Virus record (IMG/VR): IMGVR_UViG_3300007754_000004
Span: 1 to 64,000 of that record
Direction: 5' to 3' (one strand)
DNA: 64,000 nt
Source of the DNA: a virus
Of the stretch, positions 2,073 through 9,747 are shown one piece after another. Below the pieces are notes generated by a model. The model was not told the DNA's origin. It saw only the letters and a program-made list of their open reading frames with translations, and did not search any database. The first letter of the stretch is position 1. Every line of letters begins with the position of its first letter. Position numbers and translations under genes: made by a program.

Positions 2073-2384
2073 TCATTCCCTCATCTGGTTTGCGTTGAGA
2101 CGGCGACGCTTCTCTTCTTTCTCGGCCTCGACTCGCTGGGCGATCAGGATTTTCCTCTCGGCTTCCCGTCGCTCCCGCTCCCATGAGGCCCACTTCCAGG
2201 GCGGGACGTTGGTGCGAGGGATGAAGATACGAGAGACGAGGTTATCGATCTCACACCAGTTGTTCCCGTTGATCAGGAAGTGGTTCTTGACCTTGTGTCG
2301 AGACCACGCGACCCCGAAGAAGACACCCCAACCGAGCAAGGTTGCGCCGATCCCACAAAGACAGATGATCTCAATCAGGCCCAT
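2073..2384 (-). CDS. hypothetical membrane protein (103 aa)
   Basis: Hydrophobic N-terminal helix; starts 3 bp after the ligase stop. Confidence 0.65.
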   Translation of the reverse strand: MGLIEIICLCGIGATLLGWGVFFGVAWSRHKVKNHFLINGNNWCEIDNLVSRIFIPRTNVPPWKWASWERERREAERKILIAQRVEAEKEEKRRRLNANQMRE

Positions 2385-2387
2385 GGT

Positions 2388-4118
2388 TCACACTCCCGCC
2401 ATTTGCTCAGCCGCCGTGATCCCGATGACCTGGACTCCGTACTTTCGAGCCTTCTTCGCCTTCCCACTGTCGGCGGTGGGGTCGCTGGCGACGAGGTAGG
2501 TCAGGGACCTGCTGACCCCGGACTTCATCACGCCCCCGAGGCCCTCAATCGCCCGCTCCAGGTTGGAGTCACGGAAACCGGTGAAGCAGAAGCTCTTACC
2601 CTTCAGGGGGCCGGTCACCGGGGCCTTGATCGTGATCCCAGCCAGAAGGAGATGGTTGATGATCTCTTCGCGATCCCGGAGACCGTTGACGAATTCCCGA
2701 GCCTTCCTGGTCCCCACGCCGGGGATGGAAGCGATCTCCGCCTCGGTAGCCATCTCCATCTTCGGGAGGGTGTCGTAGCCCGCCTGGACGATCTTCTGGC
2801 ACATGGAGCGAGCCATCATGGGAATCCCCAGCGACCCGATGAGCAGGTGAAGCGGGAGGTCGGTCAGCTTCATCAGGTTGTCGTGAGCGATCTGGACCTT
2901 CCGACCCAAACGGGTCCCGTTCCCGTCCCGAATCTGCGTCGCCTTGGACAGGTTGAGCACATAGAGGTCCGCGGGCTCTCGGATGAGCCCGGCCTCGTAG
3001 AGAGGGACGATGATCCCATCACCCCAGCCCTTGATATCGAGCTTGGAGGTCCAGCGGTCAATCGCCCCGGCTCCCTGAGCCGGGCAGTTGTCGCCCAGAC
3101 ACTTCAGGAAGGCCCCGACCATCGTCAGCTTGCCGGAGCAGGAGGGACAGTCCGTGGGCTGACTCTGGAAGATGGGGGCGGCGTCGGTGGTCGCCTTGAC
3201 CCACTTCTCCACCTTGGGGATCACGTCCCCGCGGCGAGAGACGAAGATGGTGTCTCCGATCGCGAAAGCGGGCTTCCCACTCTTGTGGAGGAGGTCTCCG
3301 ATGATTCCCCAATTGGCGAGGGAGGCCCTCTTGACACTGGCTCCCGAGAGGACGACTTCCTTGAACACCGCGACGGGGGTAACGATCCCGGTCGGGCCGA
3401 CCTGATTCTCGATCCCCTCAAGAATCGTGTTGGCGGCGTCAGCCGTGAACTTGAACGCAGTGGAGCCCACCGGCCCCCGACCGCTGGTGCCCAGGCTGTC
3501 GAAGAAGTCCCGATCATCCTCCTCGTAGATCAGCCCATCGATATCGTAGTCGAGGGTTGCCCGCTTGGTGTCCTGGTACTCCTTGTGCCACGCCAGGGCA
3601 TCGGGGAGATCGATGAAGCACTCCCAGGCTGGGGTCCGGAAGCCCAGCCGCTCCAGCAAGCGGAACTCGACTCGCTTGCTGGCGATCTTCCTCCCGCCGT
3701 CTCGCCGGATCTCGTAGGCGATGACGGTGAGATGCTGATTGTCCGACCGAGCGGAGTCCTCACGCTTGGCGATGCCCACCGCTCCGTTGCGAGGGTTCAC
3801 CATCGTGGGAAAGTGAGCCTTCCAGTCGCTCTTGAGGAGCACGATCTCCGCTCGGATGAAGCCGGTGAAGCCCGGGATCACCTTCACGAGCCCCTTCATC
3901 AGCTTCACGTTCTCGGTGATATCGACCCCGACCATCCGGCCGGTCTGGGGATCCTTCTTCCCCCGGGTCACCCCTCGGGCGAGGCTCCCGTTCTCGTAGT
4001 AGAGAGCGCAGTTGTGAGCCAGGGCTCCGCTGCCGACAAAGTAGGCGTGAGTGTCCTTGACTTCCATGTCATAGGCCACCCGCTCTCCGGGGACTCTCTC
4101 GACGCTGACGACTCTCAT
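2388..4118 (-). CDS. ligA: NAD-dependent DNA ligase, C-terminal part, fused behind a 36-aa split-intein C fragment
   Basis: After HN|C: CALYYENG..TRG, YDIDGLI, AFKF, QVGPTGIVTPVA (OB fold), RRGDVIP, CPSC..C..C zinc finger, HhH repeats, BRCT (GKSFCFTGF). Confidence 0.93.
   Translation of the reverse strand: MRVVSVERVPGERVAYDMEVKDTHAYFVGSGALAHNCALYYENGSLARGVTRGKKDPQTGRMVGVDITENVKLMKGLVKVIPGFTGFIRAEIVLLKSDWKAHFPTMVNPRNGAVGIAKREDSARSDNQHLTVIAYEIRRDGGRKIASKRVEFRLLERLGFRTPAWECFIDLPDALAWHKEYQDTKRATLDYDIDGLIYEEDDRDFFDSLGTSGRGPVGSTAFKFTADAANTILEGIENQVGPTGIVTPVAVFKEVVLSGASVKRASLANWGIIGDLLHKSGKPAFAIGDTIFVSRRGDVIPKVEKWVKATTDAAPIFQSQPTDCPSCSGKLTMVGAFLKCLGDNCPAQGAGAIDRWTSKLDIKGWGDGIIVPLYEAGLIREPADLYVLNLSKATQIRDGNGTRLGRKVQIAHDNLMKLTDLPLHLLIGSLGIPMMARSMCQKIVQAGYDTLPKMEMATEAEIASIPGVGTRKAREFVNGLRDREEIINHLLLAGITIKAPVTGPLKGKSFCFTGFRDSNLERAIEGLGGVMKSGVSRSLTYLVASDPTADSGKAKKARKYGVQVIGITAAEQMAGV
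4011..4118 (-). mobile_element. split intein C fragment (IntC, 36 aa)
   Basis: MRVVSVERVPGERVAYDMEVKDTHAYFVGSGALAHN followed by Cys+1: block F (YDMEV..H.YF) and block G (HN). Confidence 0.92.
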
Positions 4119-4238
4119 GGGCTGTTCCTATGTAGGAAAGCGTTCACCTTCTCCAGTACCCGAGAGGGACCACGCTTCCAATCTTCCCATACGACCAGCA
4201 CACGGAAACTTGCCGACCAAAATGCCCCCAGACACGAT

Positions 4239-4559
4239 TCAACGGACTGTAAACCAGTCTCTCATCCGAATTGCCCGATCAATGGCGTCTTTCGCGTCGT
4301 TGATCGACGGCTTGCAGTACCAGAGAGGGAAGTCTACCTGGAAGAAGCAGTGACCCCCATCTATATCCGGTAGCTGGATGATCCGAAAATTCTTGTAGAA
4401 GTGCTCCGTAGCTTCCCTTTGCAGGTCCCTGACATAGTGAAATTGTGCTCGGTCTAAGGCTGCCTCGCACCAGGGAACAACGATCAAACCTTCCTCTGAG
4501 ATGAAACCCTGGCAGGTATCGTATGGGTGGCATCGGTGAAATGTCAGGACTATACGCAT
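4239..4559 (-). CDS. hypothetical protein (106 aa) between the split-intein halves
   Basis: ATG with GAGGA SD; visibly AT-richer than its flanks. Confidence 0.6.
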   Translation of the reverse strand: MRIVLTFHRCHPYDTCQGFISEEGLIVVPWCEAALDRAQFHYVRDLQREATEHFYKNFRIIQLPDIDGGHCFFQVDFPLWYCKPSINDAKDAIDRAIRMRDWFTVR

Positions 4560-4611
4560 GACGGAATCCTCTATTGATATCCGTCAGGTAGTACCGAGGC
4601 TGTAATCCGGT

Positions 4612-5244
4612 TCAGAACCCCCACCGGAGAGCTGTCCAGACCATCGTGTCTTTCCTGCTGACGTAGGGGTGAAGGGCTTCGGGCTCTACGGGTATCCCGA
4701 AGGCATCCCGCAGCATCTCGCGATACCTATCGTAGGTGTCGTTGGATCGGTATCTGGGGCTCCCGTCCACGTTTAGCACCAGGAGAAATTCGCCCAGCCT
4801 CTCCCGCTGCCGCTGAGCGAATCTGGCGAGGGCTCTCAAATCTCGCTGGATGGTTCTCTTCCCCTTGACTGCCCGGAAGGAGTCATAGACGAGGACTCCG
4901 ACCCGGTCGAAGGCCCCCACCCGCCGGAGGGCCGGAATCAGGGGGCCTTGATGCCAGCTTGCTGGAGCCTCGGGGCCATAGTGGTTTCTGCAACCTAGGA
5001 TGATTTCGGGGTCGGTGTCCACGCCGATAAAGCGAGCCGGGGACGCCAGGGCTTCCCGGTCGAGTAGGAGCCGGAGGGTGGGGGCTTGCGTCCCCGCTAG
5101 CTCCATCCAGTCGCAGCGGAGAGCCTGCTGGGAGCGAGACCAGAGGAAGGAAGACCGGCGGACGATCTTGAGGGCATGTAGCCGGGTCTCGTCCTTGGCC
5201 TCAAACCCCTGGTCGGAGAGAGTTGTGCTGGTGAAGTCAGTCAT
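4612..5244 (-). CDS. putative SAM-dependent methyltransferase-like (Rossmann fold) protein, ~210 aa
   Basis: Start reassigned to ATG 5244, which overlaps the helicase stop; WMELAG, RFIGVDTDPEII and VLVYDSF resemble degenerate motif I/II/IV strands. The fold call is tentative. Confidence 0.5.
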   Translation of the reverse strand: MTDFTSTTLSDQGFEAKDETRLHALKIVRRSSFLWSRSQQALRCDWMELAGTQAPTLRLLLDREALASPARFIGVDTDPEIILGCRNHYGPEAPASWHQGPLIPALRRVGAFDRVGVLVYDSFRAVKGKRTIQRDLRALARFAQRQRERLGEFLLVLNVDGSPRYRSNDTYDRYREMLRDAFGIPVEPEALHPYVSRKDTMVWTALRWGF

Positions 5245-7945
5245 CAGCCAGCTCGTCCAGATTGGCGGGGACAAAGGGTGTCTTGGCTCGGGGGTTCTTT
5301 TTGAACCCCCGGTCGTGTAAAAGCCGGGCGAGTGAGGACCCCCCCGGAAGGCCCCACTTTCCTCGGGCGATGGCGAGGTTGAGTCCTTGCCAGGACGTGT
5401 GAAAACCAATGTAGGGGAAAGCGTCGTCGGTCATCTTGGTTTTGGGGAACTGCCCAAATTGCCGGTAAAACTTGATCGCAGCGTTCACCACTGCATCTTC
5501 TGTCAGATCCGAGGGCTTGATTATCTTGTTCACCTTGAGCCCCCTCTCATGGAGGAGTCTCGCCAGGGAGCTGCTTCCCGGCAGGCCCCACCACCCCTCT
5601 TTTAATGCTATGTCCACACTCCCCCATGATGTAGAGAAATTAAAATGATTGTCCGCCCGACCGGAAGCCGCTTGGGGCCAAACTCCATTTTCTCTGTGGA
5701 AATTCTGGGAAGCTTGGACCACATCATTTTCCGTAAGGTCCACCGGTTTGACTGCTTGACTAAATTTGAGCCCCCTCTGGTGAAGTAGTTGGGGGAGGGT
5801 TGAACCCCCTGGTAAGGATTGAAAACCGCGATCCAATGCCGCGGCAACTCCTCTCCAGGAGACGGGAAAACCAAATTCCCGGGAGGCATCCCCCGATGTT
5901 TCGGTGGGCCACTTCCCGGTTCTATTGTGAAAGCCTTTGGCGGCTGTCACGATTAGTTCTTCTGTCAATCCGGGCCTGGATGCCAGATTGGCTCGTAACC
6001 CCCGCCTATGCAATAGTTGTGCAAAGGTCTCCCCACCAGGAAGCCCTCTTAAACCCTCATAGAGGGCACAATGGACAGCCGTCCACGTTTCCCGAAACCC
6101 GAAATCCTTGGCTGCATCCCCCGTGTTTGAGGAGGGCCACCTTCCCGTTCTCGCATGGTGTCTTTTGGCGGCCTCCACGATCATGTCTTCGGTAAGATTC
6201 GGCTTGTTGAAGTATGCCGTGAGGCGACCTACCACGTCCTTCGCATCCTTCCCCGTGAACGCTGAATAGACCGCCAGGACCCGCGCAGCTTCGGTGTAGG
6301 TCTGATCCCGGTAATCCGCGAGAATCTCGTTCCAGGCCGCGATGTAATCCTCGCGGATTTCTCCTATTGGGAGAGCTGGGCGAGTAGCTCCGACGAACTC
6401 CCCCGCCAGTTGCAACCCGGCTTGATGCTCTACAGGACTCAGGCTCAAGCTCGTCAGGTATCCCTGTAGCTGGCCGACGTTGGGGGCTTCCCCTGTCCGG
6501 GATTCATACAGGCCCGCCCAATTTGTGAGACGGGCTCGCATCCTCAGCAGAATGTGGTCCGGGACCTCCACACGCTGACGGTCCCGAATCCGCTGGACTC
6601 GATCCCCCTCGCCTCTCGGTGGACGTGACCAGGATCTCTCCATCCGAATTCGCAGATCCGCTCGGACTTCTCTCGCGACCTCCCAATCCGCCATGTAGCA
6701 GGCGAGCAGGAAGGCGTAGTTGTGGTGCTGCTTTTCAAACTGAGCCAGCACATCGTCCGGGACCTGCTGAACGAAGAGGGTAATCCGGGCATCCTCCGGG
6801 TGTGGGTGGCCGGCGATTTCGCTCTTGTTCCGGAAAGCCCGACCCCATCGCTGAAGGATCAGCCCGAAGCTGCGGGGGATCCCCATGTTGTAGACGTGGG
6901 AGCAGAGGGGCCAGTCCGTGCCCTCATCAAACCGCTTACAGGCGAGGATGACGTCCGTAGTTGAATCCTCATACCGAGAGACCTCTTTATCGACCTCCAG
7001 TGCCGCCTGAAGCCGCTCAGCGACGTCTCTACCCACCCCGACCGCATCAACTACCCGCACGCCAGGAGAGGCCGCCTGGAGGGCTTTCAGAAGCCGGTTC
7101 GTGAACCGACGAGACCGCTTCGCAGGGACGATAAAGACCGCTTTCGGCTTTCCGTCCGCGACCCACTTGTCTACGAGCCACCGATGGGCTGTCCCGGAGT
7201 TGTTCTCCTGGGCGGATAGCTCCTCTCCAGCGTACTGCCGAGCCGTTTCGGCTACGGAATCCATGAGCACGGTCTGAATCTGGAAGTTGCCAGGGGCGTA
7301 CCCCGAAGCGGCGTGATCAGAAATCGTCCAGATGTGCGTCTTGGTGCCTTCCGGGAAGACCTCTTGACCGTCTGACCGGAAGGGGGTCGCCGTAGTCCGG
7401 AGGACGGTCCCGCCCCGGGACTCCCATGCCACACCGAAATCACCGATCTTGGTATTCAGCCGCCTGTCGGAGTCGCTGGTCCCTGCGTGGTGCCCCTCGT
7501 CCAGAATGAGTAGCTTCCCTGTCAGGTCATCCGGGAGGGTACGTTCGCCCCAGCAGGCGAGCTGCTGGTGGGTCGTCAACAGAAACGGCGTGTCCAACTC
7601 CCCCGTCAAGAGCGACCTGAAGTTCTCCTGCTTGTGCTCTTCTTCTCGCAGGCGGAGAAATTCACCCTCCCGAGCGGTGAACGCCACGGCGGCGGACGAC
7701 CAGGGGATATCGTGAGGATCGACCTGGAGGTACCAGTCCTGCTTGAAATTCTCTTCGATCTGAATCGAGGGAGCCGCGATCACGACCCCGGAGAATATCG
7801 GCCGGGTCTTGGAGACGAGACCCGCCAGGATGAGGCTCTTCCCGCTCCCGGTCGGGGCGACTAGACCCAGGCTCTTATGCCCATCAGAGGCATAGGCTGA
7901 CAGGTCCAGCACCGCATCCCACTGGTATGGGCGAAGGGTCTTCAA
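5237..7945 (-). CDS. SF2 DEAD/DEAH-box (ResIII-like) helicase with four C-terminal ~77-aa repeats (902 aa)
   Basis: LRPYQ, APTGSGKS, LILDEGHH, TATPFRSDG, FDEGTDWP, QRWGRAFR; TTG start 3 bp after the LigA-N stop. Confidence 0.9.
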   Translation of the reverse strand: MKTLRPYQWDAVLDLSAYASDGHKSLGLVAPTGSGKSLILAGLVSKTRPIFSGVVIAAPSIQIEENFKQDWYLQVDPHDIPWSSAAVAFTAREGEFLRLREEEHKQENFRSLLTGELDTPFLLTTHQQLACWGERTLPDDLTGKLLILDEGHHAGTSDSDRRLNTKIGDFGVAWESRGGTVLRTTATPFRSDGQEVFPEGTKTHIWTISDHAASGYAPGNFQIQTVLMDSVAETARQYAGEELSAQENNSGTAHRWLVDKWVADGKPKAVFIVPAKRSRRFTNRLLKALQAASPGVRVVDAVGVGRDVAERLQAALEVDKEVSRYEDSTTDVILACKRFDEGTDWPLCSHVYNMGIPRSFGLILQRWGRAFRNKSEIAGHPHPEDARITLFVQQVPDDVLAQFEKQHHNYAFLLACYMADWEVAREVRADLRIRMERSWSRPPRGEGDRVQRIRDRQRVEVPDHILLRMRARLTNWAGLYESRTGEAPNVGQLQGYLTSLSLSPVEHQAGLQLAGEFVGATRPALPIGEIREDYIAAWNEILADYRDQTYTEAARVLAVYSAFTGKDAKDVVGRLTAYFNKPNLTEDMIVEAAKRHHARTGRWPSSNTGDAAKDFGFRETWTAVHCALYEGLRGLPGGETFAQLLHRRGLRANLASRPGLTEELIVTAAKGFHNRTGKWPTETSGDASREFGFPVSWRGVAAALDRGFQSLPGGSTLPQLLHQRGLKFSQAVKPVDLTENDVVQASQNFHRENGVWPQAASGRADNHFNFSTSWGSVDIALKEGWWGLPGSSSLARLLHERGLKVNKIIKPSDLTEDAVVNAAIKFYRQFGQFPKTKMTDDAFPYIGFHTSWQGLNLAIARGKWGLPGGSSLARLLHDRGFKKNPRAKTPFVPANLDELADD
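5276..6196 (-). repeat. four tandem 76-77 aa protein repeats (LTE..V.AA..FH...G.WP...G.....F...SW..V..AL..G..GLPGGSSLARLLH.RG)
   Basis: Repeat starts at 6196, 5968, 5737 and 5506 (spacing 228, 231, 231 nt). Confidence 0.9.
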
Positions 7946-7948
7946 GAC

Positions 7949-8635
7949 CTACTCCCGGTTGTCGGTGACTTCCTTTCCAGCCAGGAAGCGGGCTTCCACC
8001 CACCCCTCTCCCTCGACGTGGAACTTGTGGTCCTCAGTCACGACTACGGTGGTGCCGTCCTCAAAGGTCAACTTGACCCAATTGTCCCGCACGCCGTTGT
8101 TGAACGTATTGGTCACCCGGCTGGTCGTGATCCCACCCTCCGGGCTCCAGGTCAGCACCTCGGGACGGAGGCCCTCCTCCACGATCTCCCGAATCGGGAC
8201 CTGCTCCCCGTTGGCGAGATGGATGAGGGTACCGCCATCGAAGCAGGAGAAACCGTCGAGTTTTTCTGACCCTACGATGCTGGGGAGCCTCCCCGGCCGC
8301 CTCGCGGCGTGGGTCTTCCACCAGCCCTCAAACTCTTTCGGGTTCTTAGACTTGTTCTGGCTCCCCATCGGAGCCGTGTGGGAGAACTTGCTGAAGCTGG
8401 TCGCTTCCAGCTCGTCCTCAGGATCGACGGCGTCCCCCCAGACCATGTCGAGGAATGCTCGACCTCCCTTCACCTCGGGCTTGTTGGGGCTGAACTTCTC
8501 AGCCAGCTCCAGGGCGATCTTGAACTTGTCGTAAGCGGCGTCATAGACCGCGTCGGATACCTCCGGGCTCCCCGCTCGGTAAGCGGCATTCCACTGGATA
8601 AGCTGGGCGAGCTGGGCTGCGATCTTGGACGCCAT
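7949..8635 (-). CDS. ligA: NAD-dependent DNA ligase, N-terminal part (130 aa) fused to a 98-aa split-intein N fragment
   Basis: YRAGSPEVSDAVYD (domain Ia), HTAPMGSQNK, active-site EKLDGFS, then the intein start CFDGGTLIHL. Confidence 0.93.
   Translation of the reverse strand: MASKIAAQLAQLIQWNAAYRAGSPEVSDAVYDAAYDKFKIALELAEKFSPNKPEVKGGRAFLDMVWGDAVDPEDELEATSFSKFSHTAPMGSQNKSKNPKEFEGWWKTHAARRPGRLPSIVGSEKLDGFSCFDGGTLIHLANGEQVPIREIVEEGLRPEVLTWSPEGGITTSRVTNTFNNGVRDNWVKLTFEDGTTVVVTEDHKFHVEGEGWVEARFLAGKEVTDNRE
7952..8245 (-). mobile_element. split intein N fragment (IntN, 98 aa)
   Basis: Block A CFDGGTLIHLANG and block B VTEDHKF; the ORF stops with no block F/G. Confidence 0.92.
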
Positions 8636-8657
8636 TAGGGGATGCTCCTCTGTCGGG

Positions 8658-8684
8658 TATACGACCCGCGTGTGGGAAGATACC
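8658..8684 (-). promoter_or_regulatory. ECF-like promoter motif GGTATC-N15-CGTATA upstream of ligA-N
   Basis: One of 11 copies with fixed spacing. Confidence 0.65.
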
Positions 8685-8686
8685 TA

Positions 8687-9379
8687 TCAGTACCAGGAGG
8701 GGGATCTGGTGCCCTCACTCTCGATATCTTCGCGGACAGTCTTCTCAAAGGCGGCCTGCTCCTCCGGCTCCCAGCCTTCCAGGCCCTTCTCCAGGGGCTC
8801 GTAGGGCGGCGGGTAGGTCGTGGCCCCCTCGCTGAACTTCCGCCCCTTGAAGCCGATATGTCGAGCCCACAGGAGGTTCCGGAGGTTGATCAGGTGATCC
8901 AGGCTCTCGTTGTAGAAAGCCACCATCTTGAAGCCCACATAGACCCGGAGAGAGCCCATGAAGATGGCTCCAGCCACGCACCAGTTGAAGAGAGTGAGAC
9001 TCCCGGAGTTGTCGGCCCCCGCGACGAGCCCCATGACGCCCGCGAGGACGGTACCGGCCAGGAAGCTGTAGCTGGCTCGGTGGTGCCGCTCGGCGTGGCC
9101 CTTGAGGTTCTCGACCTTTCGGCGGAACTCGCCCTCCATGTCCCGGGACCTGTTCGCCCGGGTGAGCAGGATCTTCATGGCGGCGACGAACGGAGGCCCC
9201 GGCGCCGCGTTGCACAGCTTGATCGCCCGATCGACGTTGTTCGCCATCACAAGCTTCTGGATCTGGGTGTAGAACGCCTGGGCGTTGATCCGCTCCCGGA
9301 GATAGAACGGGACGAGTGAGAGGAGTGCTGCGAGGGAGAACCCGCCCAGCACGACGACGAAGGGGAGTAGCTGTTCCAT
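8687..9379 (-). CDS. MotA/TolQ/ExbB-like membrane protein (divergent, ~230 aa)
   Basis: Start reassigned to ATG 9379. TM helix followed by INAQAFYTQIQKLVMANNVDRAIKLCNAAP...ILLTRANR, which I recognise as resembling the cytoplasmic loop of myxobacterial TolQ/AglR-type proteins, then two more hydrophobic segments. Confidence 0.65.
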   Translation of the reverse strand: MEQLLPFVVVLGGFSLAALLSLVPFYLRERINAQAFYTQIQKLVMANNVDRAIKLCNAAPGPPFVAAMKILLTRANRSRDMEGEFRRKVENLKGHAERHHRASYSFLAGTVLAGVMGLVAGADNSGSLTLFNWCVAGAIFMGSLRVYVGFKMVAFYNESLDHLINLRNLLWARHIGFKGRKFSEGATTYPPPYEPLEKGLEGWEPEEQAAFEKTVREDIESEGTRSPSWY

Positions 9380-9386
9380 GATGGCG

Positions 9387-9413
9387 TATACGACCCGTCC
9401 CGAGAAACTTTCT
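9387..9413 (-). promoter_or_regulatory. ECF-like promoter motif AGAAAG-N15-CGTATA (probably a leaderless transcript)
   Basis: The -10 element ends 7 nt before ATG 9379, leaving no room for an SD. Confidence 0.6.
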
Positions 9414-9720: not shown

Positions 9721-9747
9721 TATACGAGGAGCCCCCGGATAATTTCC
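9721..9747 (-). promoter_or_regulatory. ECF-like promoter motif GGAAAT-N15-CGTATA driving the candidate ncRNA
   Basis: Motif copy not followed by a CDS. Confidence 0.65.

Follow-up and report, generated by a model that had tools for sequence, protein, structure and literature searches.

A stretch of viral DNA of 64,000 nucleotides (nt), positions 1 to 64,000 of IMG/VR record IMGVR_UViG_3300007754_000004 and hereafter called the window, encodes the nicotinamide adenine dinucleotide (NAD)-dependent DNA ligase, LigA, of a large marine phage as two genes on the same strand. The sequence data suggest that, once translated, the two products are very probably spliced together by a split intein of the canonical class 1, and that ligase activity would then depend on trans-splicing right beside motif I of the active site. 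The N-terminal intein half (IntN) and the C-terminal intein half (IntC) would associate into a HINT fold, the first intein cysteine (Cys1) would attack the carbonyl of Ser130, and the acyl group would then move to the first cysteine after the intein (Cys+1). Cyclisation of Asn36 of IntC would release a ligase of 670 amino acids (aa). The window has about 60% G+C and is part of an 84.4-kb viral record, whose completeness was estimated by CheckV at about 16%.

Anatomy of the two ligase genes

The product of the N-half gene consists of the first part of the ligase (N-extein) followed by IntN, and motif I, K125-L-D-G-F-S130, stands at the very end of the N-extein. The product of the C-half gene opens with IntC, whose blocks F and G read AYDMEV..THAYFVGSGALAHN/C through the splice junction (a slash marks a cut or junction here and below), and continues with the rest of the ligase (C-extein). 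Each half has its own start and stop codon, and the gap of 3,830 nt between them holds three open reading frames (ORFs). The coordinates are collected in Table 1. The initial annotation of this DNA had described an N-half ending in motif I plus a 98-aa IntN, and a C-half opening with a 36-aa IntC that ends in HN and is followed by CALYYENG; we reproduced both, in sequence and coordinates, to the base. Its arithmetic was also correct, in that 130 + 540 residues give the 670-aa joined ligase, with the predicted junction KLDGFS-CALYYENG, and the spacing is about 3.8 kb.

Table 1. Features of the split ligase locus (window coordinates; repeats and promoter-like motif at the end)
Feature	Position	Strand	Description
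N-half gene	7949-8635	-	228 aa; N-extein (residues 1-130), then IntN (residues 131-228); stop codon TAG at 7949-7951
N-extein	8246-8635	-	LigA residues 1-130: domain Ia and start of nucleotidyltransferase domain; ends ...GSEKLDGFS
IntN	7952-8245	-	98 aa from CFDGGT; Cys1 = C131; block B T200-E-D-H203; net charge -9
Superfamily 2 (SF2) helicase gene	5237-7945	-	902 aa; ResIII/DEAD and Helicase_C (PF04851, 1.3e-10; phrog_16, 1.8e-24)
Methyltransferase-like gene	4612-5244	-	210 aa; predicted class I S-adenosylmethionine (SAM)-methyltransferase-like fold; ATG overlaps helicase stop codon
orf106	4239-4559	-	106-aa ORF, candidate gene; occupies the place of the endonuclease body in relatives
Endonuclease remnant	4115-4234	-	last 39 codons of Vsr-like homing endonuclease gene, ...VLVVWEDWKRGPSRVLEKVNAFLHRNSP, then stop
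C-half gene	2388-4118	-	576 aa; IntC (residues 1-36), ligase from residue 37; start codon ATG at 4116-4118, AGGA upstream
IntC	4011-4118	-	36 aa, MRVV...ALAHN; block F AYDMEV..THAYFV; block G ALAHN
C-extein	2388-4010	-	540 aa from CALYYENG: remaining adenylation domain, OB fold, Cys4 zinc finger, HhH, BRCT
Direct repeat, left copy	7925-7943	-	GAAGACCCTTCGCCCATAC; in first helicase codons
Direct repeat, right copy	4663-4680	-	GAAGCCCTTCACCCCTAC; near 3' end of methyltransferase-like gene
TCGTATA promoter-like motif	8658-8664	-	about 20 nt upstream of the GAGGAG Shine-Dalgarno sequence and ATG of the N-half gene

Taken together, the two genes encode the complete LigA domain order: Ia, KxDG adenylation, OB, Cys4 zinc finger, HhH and BRCT. 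The LigA profile TIGR00575 aligned with N-half residues 13-131 at model positions 6-109 and with C-half residues 37-565 at model positions 109-647. The extein ends therefore abut at position 109 of the model, indicating that no segment of the ligase is missing or duplicated. When compared with Escherichia coli LigA (2owo), the C-half aligned from residue 38 to chain residue 122 and covered 122-661. Because C-half residue 38 aligns with residue 122, Cys+1 is the equivalent of E. coli V121. The cut maps to A120/V121, five residues past the equivalent of the catalytic K115 and inside the core of the adenylation domain. Pfam matches above the gathering cut-offs in the C-half were to the adenylation domain (5.8e-21), the OB fold (8.8e-18) and BRCT (3.6e-9). 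All four zinc-finger cysteines are kept (C324, C327, C340 and C345 of the C-half gene product), and Y19, D28, D32, K125, D127 and G128 were invariant in 15 N-halves.

The intein halves

Both intein halves scored above the curated cut-offs of their families, which is far beyond chance. TIGR01445 (intein_Nterm) matched N-half residues 131-206 with 38.5 bits (cut-off 24.5), its first position falling exactly at the cysteine, and TIGR01443 (intein_Cterm) matched C-half residues 15-37 with 24.1 bits (cut-off 15.6), its last position falling at Cys+1. The Pfam family Intein_splicing also matched IntN (4.6e-6). Cys1 (C131) comes directly after KLDGFS, and it was invariant in 15 N-halves together with the Thr (T200) and His (H203) of block B; T200-E-D-H203 aligns with the TSDH motif of Ssp DnaE. 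At the other end of the intein, the terminal His-Asn and Cys+1 were invariant in an alignment of the C-halves of 7 lineages.

In an AlphaFold2 model of the N-half, IntN had the form of a beta-rich HINT N-lobe, with a predicted local distance difference test (pLDDT) score of 66-89 over residues 131-228. The top Foldseek matches of this model were all inteins or Hedgehog proteins, the best being the Npu DnaE IntN chain 4qfq_A (E = 8e-6), although identity to any solved intein was 17-29%. The model is consistent with a HINT fold, and this applies to IntN only. IntC alone gave weak matches to the block F and G regions of the DnaE, RadA and KlbA inteins, as is expected of 36 residues.

Relatives carrying the same allele

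Relatives were gathered by word-index, profile and DNA-pattern searches. When the IntC region (residues 1-90) was used as query, the word-index search returned only that protein itself, and the relatives came from the DNA-pattern scans. At least six further phage lineages from metagenomes carry the same allele, cut at KLDG[FIA]S/CF: L004 (76% identical, on a 436-kb contig), L005/L006, L008/L009, L010/L018 (on a 528-kb contig), L017 and L003/L012. L005 and L006 are identical in DNA over 5 kb and therefore represent one lineage in two samples. The allele was also present in several short fragments and in further clusters formed at 50% identity (P0008-P0013 and P0037). The phages that carry it span 37-62% G+C. 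No contiguous (cis) intein at the same LigA site was found among the best 150 of 8,994 profile matches.

In those relatives with enough flanking sequence, the halves are only about 1.0-1.1 kb apart, with a single ORF of 309-365 aa between them. This ORF starts with ML.G..W..EH, ends with ...VVWE.(D/E)W... and gave weak matches to DUF559 and REase_MTES_1575, which are Vsr-like. Such a Vsr-like homing endonuclease lies between the halves in L003, L004, L005, L008, L010 and L017. In L005 (6735-8327, identical in L006), the N-extein, IntN and the endonuclease form one ORF of 530 aa, and IntC with the C-extein is a separate gene.

The initial annotation had stated that a homing endonuclease usually lies between the halves of fractured phage genes, and this holds for the relatives; in the window only the 39-codon remnant is left. 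The endonuclease profile of the relatives matched the window in the frame 4261-4118 (minus strand) only, at profile positions 274-312 (E = 4.4e-8), and a profile scan of the window found no intact or second copy. The DNA alignment with L004 shows an identical overlap in both between the TGA that ends the endonuclease gene, here the remnant, and the start codon ATG of the C-half gene. The remainder of the endonuclease gene has been replaced by 376 nt containing orf106. We found no homology of orf106 to the endonuclease gene and no relatives of it, and its structure model was poor (pLDDT 0.55). The 3.8-kb spacing is a secondary state, made up of a decayed Vsr-like endonuclease and an inserted cassette of the helicase and methyltransferase-like genes.

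Selection on the intein and alternative explanations

Compared with L004, the ratio of nonsynonymous to synonymous substitutions (dN/dS) was 0.10 for IntN, 0.17 for IntC, 0.23 for the N-extein and 0.24 for the C-extein, with dS of about 0.3-1.3. Amino acid identity to L004 followed the same division (IntN 87%, IntC 92%, N-extein 68%, C-extein 73%). Purifying selection has thus been stronger on the intein codons than on the ligase codons, which fits a situation in which splicing is required for a needed enzyme.

A different explanation is that IntN and IntC act as a non-covalent clasp that holds the two ligase chains together, the enzyme working unspliced. NAD ligases divided without any intein do occur: L003/L012 and L005/L006 have an additional, intein-less break in the same ligase, which separates the OB fold from the zinc finger. 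At the cut studied here, by contrast, Cys1, the Thr and His of block B, the terminal His-Asn and Cys+1 do not vary between lineages in which the exteins share only 30-45% identity. Association alone would not need the splicing residues, so their invariance weighs against a clasp, as do the low dN/dS on both intein halves and the location of the cut inside the adenylation-domain core beside motif I. We consider an unspliced, clasped ligase improbable.

The low dN/dS on the intein halves also speaks against a locus in decay, in which the phage would rely on the LigA of its host and both ORFs would be turning into pseudogenes. The decayed endonuclease and the foreign genes in the gap could be taken as signs of such a process, and, the genome being incomplete, the phage may not depend on its split ligase. 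Against these signs, both ligase ORFs are intact, with dN/dS of 0.10-0.24 throughout, all catalytic and zinc-binding residues are retained, and conservation extends to the start context and the ATGA overlap. Decay of the ligase is, in our judgement, more improbable still than a clasp.

Three findings count against the main reading, that of a phage LigA rejoined by a split intein. The C-half scored 301 bits against the NCBIfam LigA equivalog cut-off of 444, and the N-half 25 bits; a C-half score below the cut-off is expected for a diverged, truncated phage enzyme. IntC is nearly neutral (net charge -1), suggesting that electrostatic steering of the two halves is weaker here than described for DnaE inteins. 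Finally, since the record is only about 16% complete, a second, intact ligase may exist elsewhere in the genome.

The intervening DNA in metagenome assemblies

The window is present in six metagenome runs of marine or seawater samples, which belong to two studies. Logan contigs from four runs, representing both studies, cover the whole 6.4-kb stretch of the locus at 99% identity or more and bridge every junction. In runs X1 and X2, which belong to different studies, a single contig spans the complete 6.4 kb, and in run X5 the intervals 2300-6136 and 7749-8700 are bridged by different contigs. Over this stretch the contigs showed neither alternative joints nor indels nor loose ends. The initial annotation had named misassembly of the intervening DNA as a concern, and the contigs of the four runs settle it: the DNA is genuine. 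An assembly error that placed the 3.8 kb between the halves has practically no chance of being the explanation, because the spanning contigs of X1 and X2 and the bridging contigs of X5 contradict it and a deletion scar in L004, described below, independently requires the helicase and methyltransferase-like genes at the same place; in its favour we found nothing beyond the fact that the sequence comes from a metagenome-assembled viral contig.

A deletion scar in L004 and the history of the locus

Between the N-half gene and the endonuclease gene of L004 lies an ORF of 23 codons, MKTLHPYVSRQDTMVWTALRWGF (L004:10690-10761). It opens like the helicase (MKTLRPYQ...) and from there on corresponds to the C-terminal end of the methyltransferase-like protein (...LHPYVSRKDTMVWTALRWGF). 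The point at which L004 switches from one to the other falls in a 19-nt imperfect direct repeat of the window (Table 1). Most simply, the sequences can be read as the result of recombination at this 19-nt microhomology, which removed the cassette from L004. LRPYQ looks like a part of the helicase's own conserved N-terminus, which makes a target duplication an unlikely origin of the direct repeat. The scar implies that the common ancestor had the order N-half, helicase, methyltransferase-like gene, endonuclease, C-half.

These data suggest the following history. The fracture would have begun as a usual fractured gene, with a Vsr-like homing endonuclease gene in the endonuclease loop of the intein. 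In an ancestor of L004 and the phage of the window, the helicase and methyltransferase-like cassette would have entered between the IntN stop codon and the endonuclease gene. The lineage of the window would then have lost the endonuclease gene except for its last 39 codons, whereas L004 would instead have deleted the cassette. We infer this order of events by comparing gene arrangements, taking the N-half, endonuclease, C-half order of the more distant relatives as the older state. The window locus is caught between the loss of the endonuclease and the separation of the halves.

It is conceivable, if unlikely, that the gap between the halves served as a cargo bay, and that the ancestor carried a split-intein homing element with cargo. 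Whenever such an element homed into a ligase allele lacking the intein in a co-infecting phage, the cargo would have been transferred together with intein and endonuclease. What the scar documents is the past coexistence of cassette and endonuclease at one locus, not their joint movement.

Comparison with known split inteins

Dassa, London, Stoddard, Schueler-Furman and Pietrokovski (2009; PMC2677866) described 27 fractured-gene loci. One of these, from Lake Gatun, is a DNA ligase most similar to the ligase of phage Felix 01, and DNA ligase was named there as a new intein host. Several features are shared with those loci: a split intein interrupts a phage enzyme of replication or repair, all parts lie on one strand, the intein halves (98 and 36 aa) have lengths inside the published ranges of 88-105 and 33-54 aa, and the five catalytic residues are present; the relatives of the window likewise carry a free-standing Vsr-like endonuclease between IntN and IntC. 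The host enzyme type was already among theirs. The window differs in having a 39-codon endonuclease remnant and three unrelated ORFs in a 3.8-kb gap. Our literature search found no paper on LigA inteins beyond this one.

The proposal in the initial annotation that the ligase is broken by a natural split intein stands, on motif, profile, fold, conservation and selection, but the suggestion of a new one does not extend to its host or kind, because of the loci of Dassa et al. and because at least six other lineages carry the same allele. Two things set the locus apart, namely its homing endonuclease, whose decay is documented, and the entry of unrelated genes between the halves; the scar in L004 supports this account.

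In the model of Dassa et al. (PMC2677866), endonuclease loss is step III (locus gp41-7) and uncoupling of the halves is step IV (cyanobacterial DnaE). Fractured genes are defined by a free-standing homing endonuclease between the halves; the relatives have one and the window lacks it, so the window is a derivative of the fractured-gene arrangement, like gp41-7. It falls between step III and step IV. The in-frame fusion of IntN and endonuclease in L005/L006 resembles step IIa/IIIa.

Among solved inteins, the cyanobacterial DnaE inteins of Ssp and Npu come closest both in sequence (E about 1e-3) and in fold (4qfq_A). They share with the window intein a split site in the endonuclease loop, Cys1 and Cys+1, an acidic IntN and similar half lengths (98 + 36 aa here; 101 aa for the Npu IntN chain 4qfq_A). 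However, identity is only 21-26%, the host protein and the insertion site differ, and the IntC of the window is not basic. The DnaE halves lie at separate, distant chromosomal loci (PMC2677866), and, unlike the window, they show no trace of an endonuclease. The gp41-1 and NrdJ-1 inteins share the fractured-phage-gene origin and the HINT fold (6qaz, 6riz and 8ubs were among the fold matches) but are only 17-25% identical, with fold E values of 6.5e-3 to 0.1, and differ from the window intein, in which the +1 residue is Cys. The two-piece NAD ligases without an intein (such as the T5-type two-subunit ligase) likewise spread a phage LigA over several genes, with a free-standing endonuclease where the gene is broken, as at the second cut of L003/L012 and L005/L006. 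The ligase of the window is uncut at the point between OB fold and zinc finger where L003/L012 and L005/L006 have their intein-less second cut.

The window adds a complete natural split intein of 98 + 36 aa with the native junction GFS/CAL. Given its low identity to solved inteins, it is a reasonable candidate for orthogonal protein ligation, as are many others. Arranged by state, the carriers of this ligase allele also form a natural series that bears on the gene-breaking model proposed by Dassa et al.: a fused endonuclease (L005/L006), a free-standing endonuclease (five lineages), the addition of cargo (the deduced ancestor), a scar (L004), and a decayed endonuclease with halves drifting apart (the window). 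Even with the endonuclease gone, selection on the intein halves remains strong. For the intein field the advance is incremental.

Other cuts and insertion points in ligase genes

The second cut of the ligase, between the OB fold and the zinc finger, lies at L003:11556-14219 (the same in L012) and L005:8347-10874 (the same in L006). The ORF at this cut, of 273-315 aa, has a TnsA-like endonuclease N domain (PF08722; 1.4e-8 and 7.7e-14), and in L003 only it also gave a weak NUMOD3 match below the gathering score (PF07460; E = 0.016). These ligases are therefore in three pieces, with one join at a split intein and one without an intein.

Metagenomic LigA N-halves with an IntN were also found at two other points, after KxDG (K.DG/C) and after TRGDG (RG[DEN]G/C), in P0028, P0029, P0032 and P0133, and in P0035, P0048, P0050, P0068, P0079, P0155, P0017, P0033, P0020 and P0022. 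Counting these two further insertion points, split inteins occupy at least three sites in LigA, all lying no more than about 25 residues from the catalytic lysine. A related IntN (31-36% identity) occurs at the K.HG motif I of RNA ligases (P0005 and P0006; phage matches H29-H34 and H39), including those of mycobacteriophages and an "intein-containing RNA ligase" of a Pseudaeromonas phage. P0067 and P0021, from the profile search, contain inteins, but we set them aside because their flanks are unlike LigA.

Neighbouring genes and expression signals

The helicase gene begins 3 nt past the stop codon of the N-half gene; the helicase is cargo and not a component of the intein. Its C-terminus (window 5237-6250, minus strand; residues about 565-902) consists of about four tandem protein repeats of about 76 aa, with the consensus LTE..IV.AA..FH.RTG.WP....GDA...FGF..SW..V..AL..G..GLPGGS.LAQLLH.RGL. 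The repeats matched no family and are visible at the protein level only, as a tandem-repeat finder run on the DNA of the 3' half of the gene found none. In the structure Atlas, the methyltransferase-like protein had template modelling (TM) scores of 0.63-0.67 to RlmJ/Methyltrans_SAM clusters, and its nearest clusters were phage hypothetical proteins; searches of Pfam, NCBIfam and phrog gave no sequence family for it. Neither the helicase nor the methyltransferase-like protein had relatives among phage records or viral contigs.

A motif scan of the minus strand between 8664 and 2388 found no copy of TCGTATA beyond the one in front of the N-half gene, and a sigma-70 and terminator scan gave counts at chance level. 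The genes of the locus are tightly packed or overlapping, and co-transcription of both halves is plausible from this layout. Elsewhere in the window, TCGTATA also occurs at 9387-9393 and 9721-9727 (minus strand), just upstream of minus-strand gene starts.

Among the database matches, H1, labelled "Acinetobacter phage MD-2021a", was rejected as a phage relative, being a bacterial contig with an ordinary ligA. L002 (CAKLQH020000007.1), which bears the same label, carries smc, zipA, ligA, bfr, otsAB and bioH/A and looks like a fragment of a bacterial chromosome filed among phage records.

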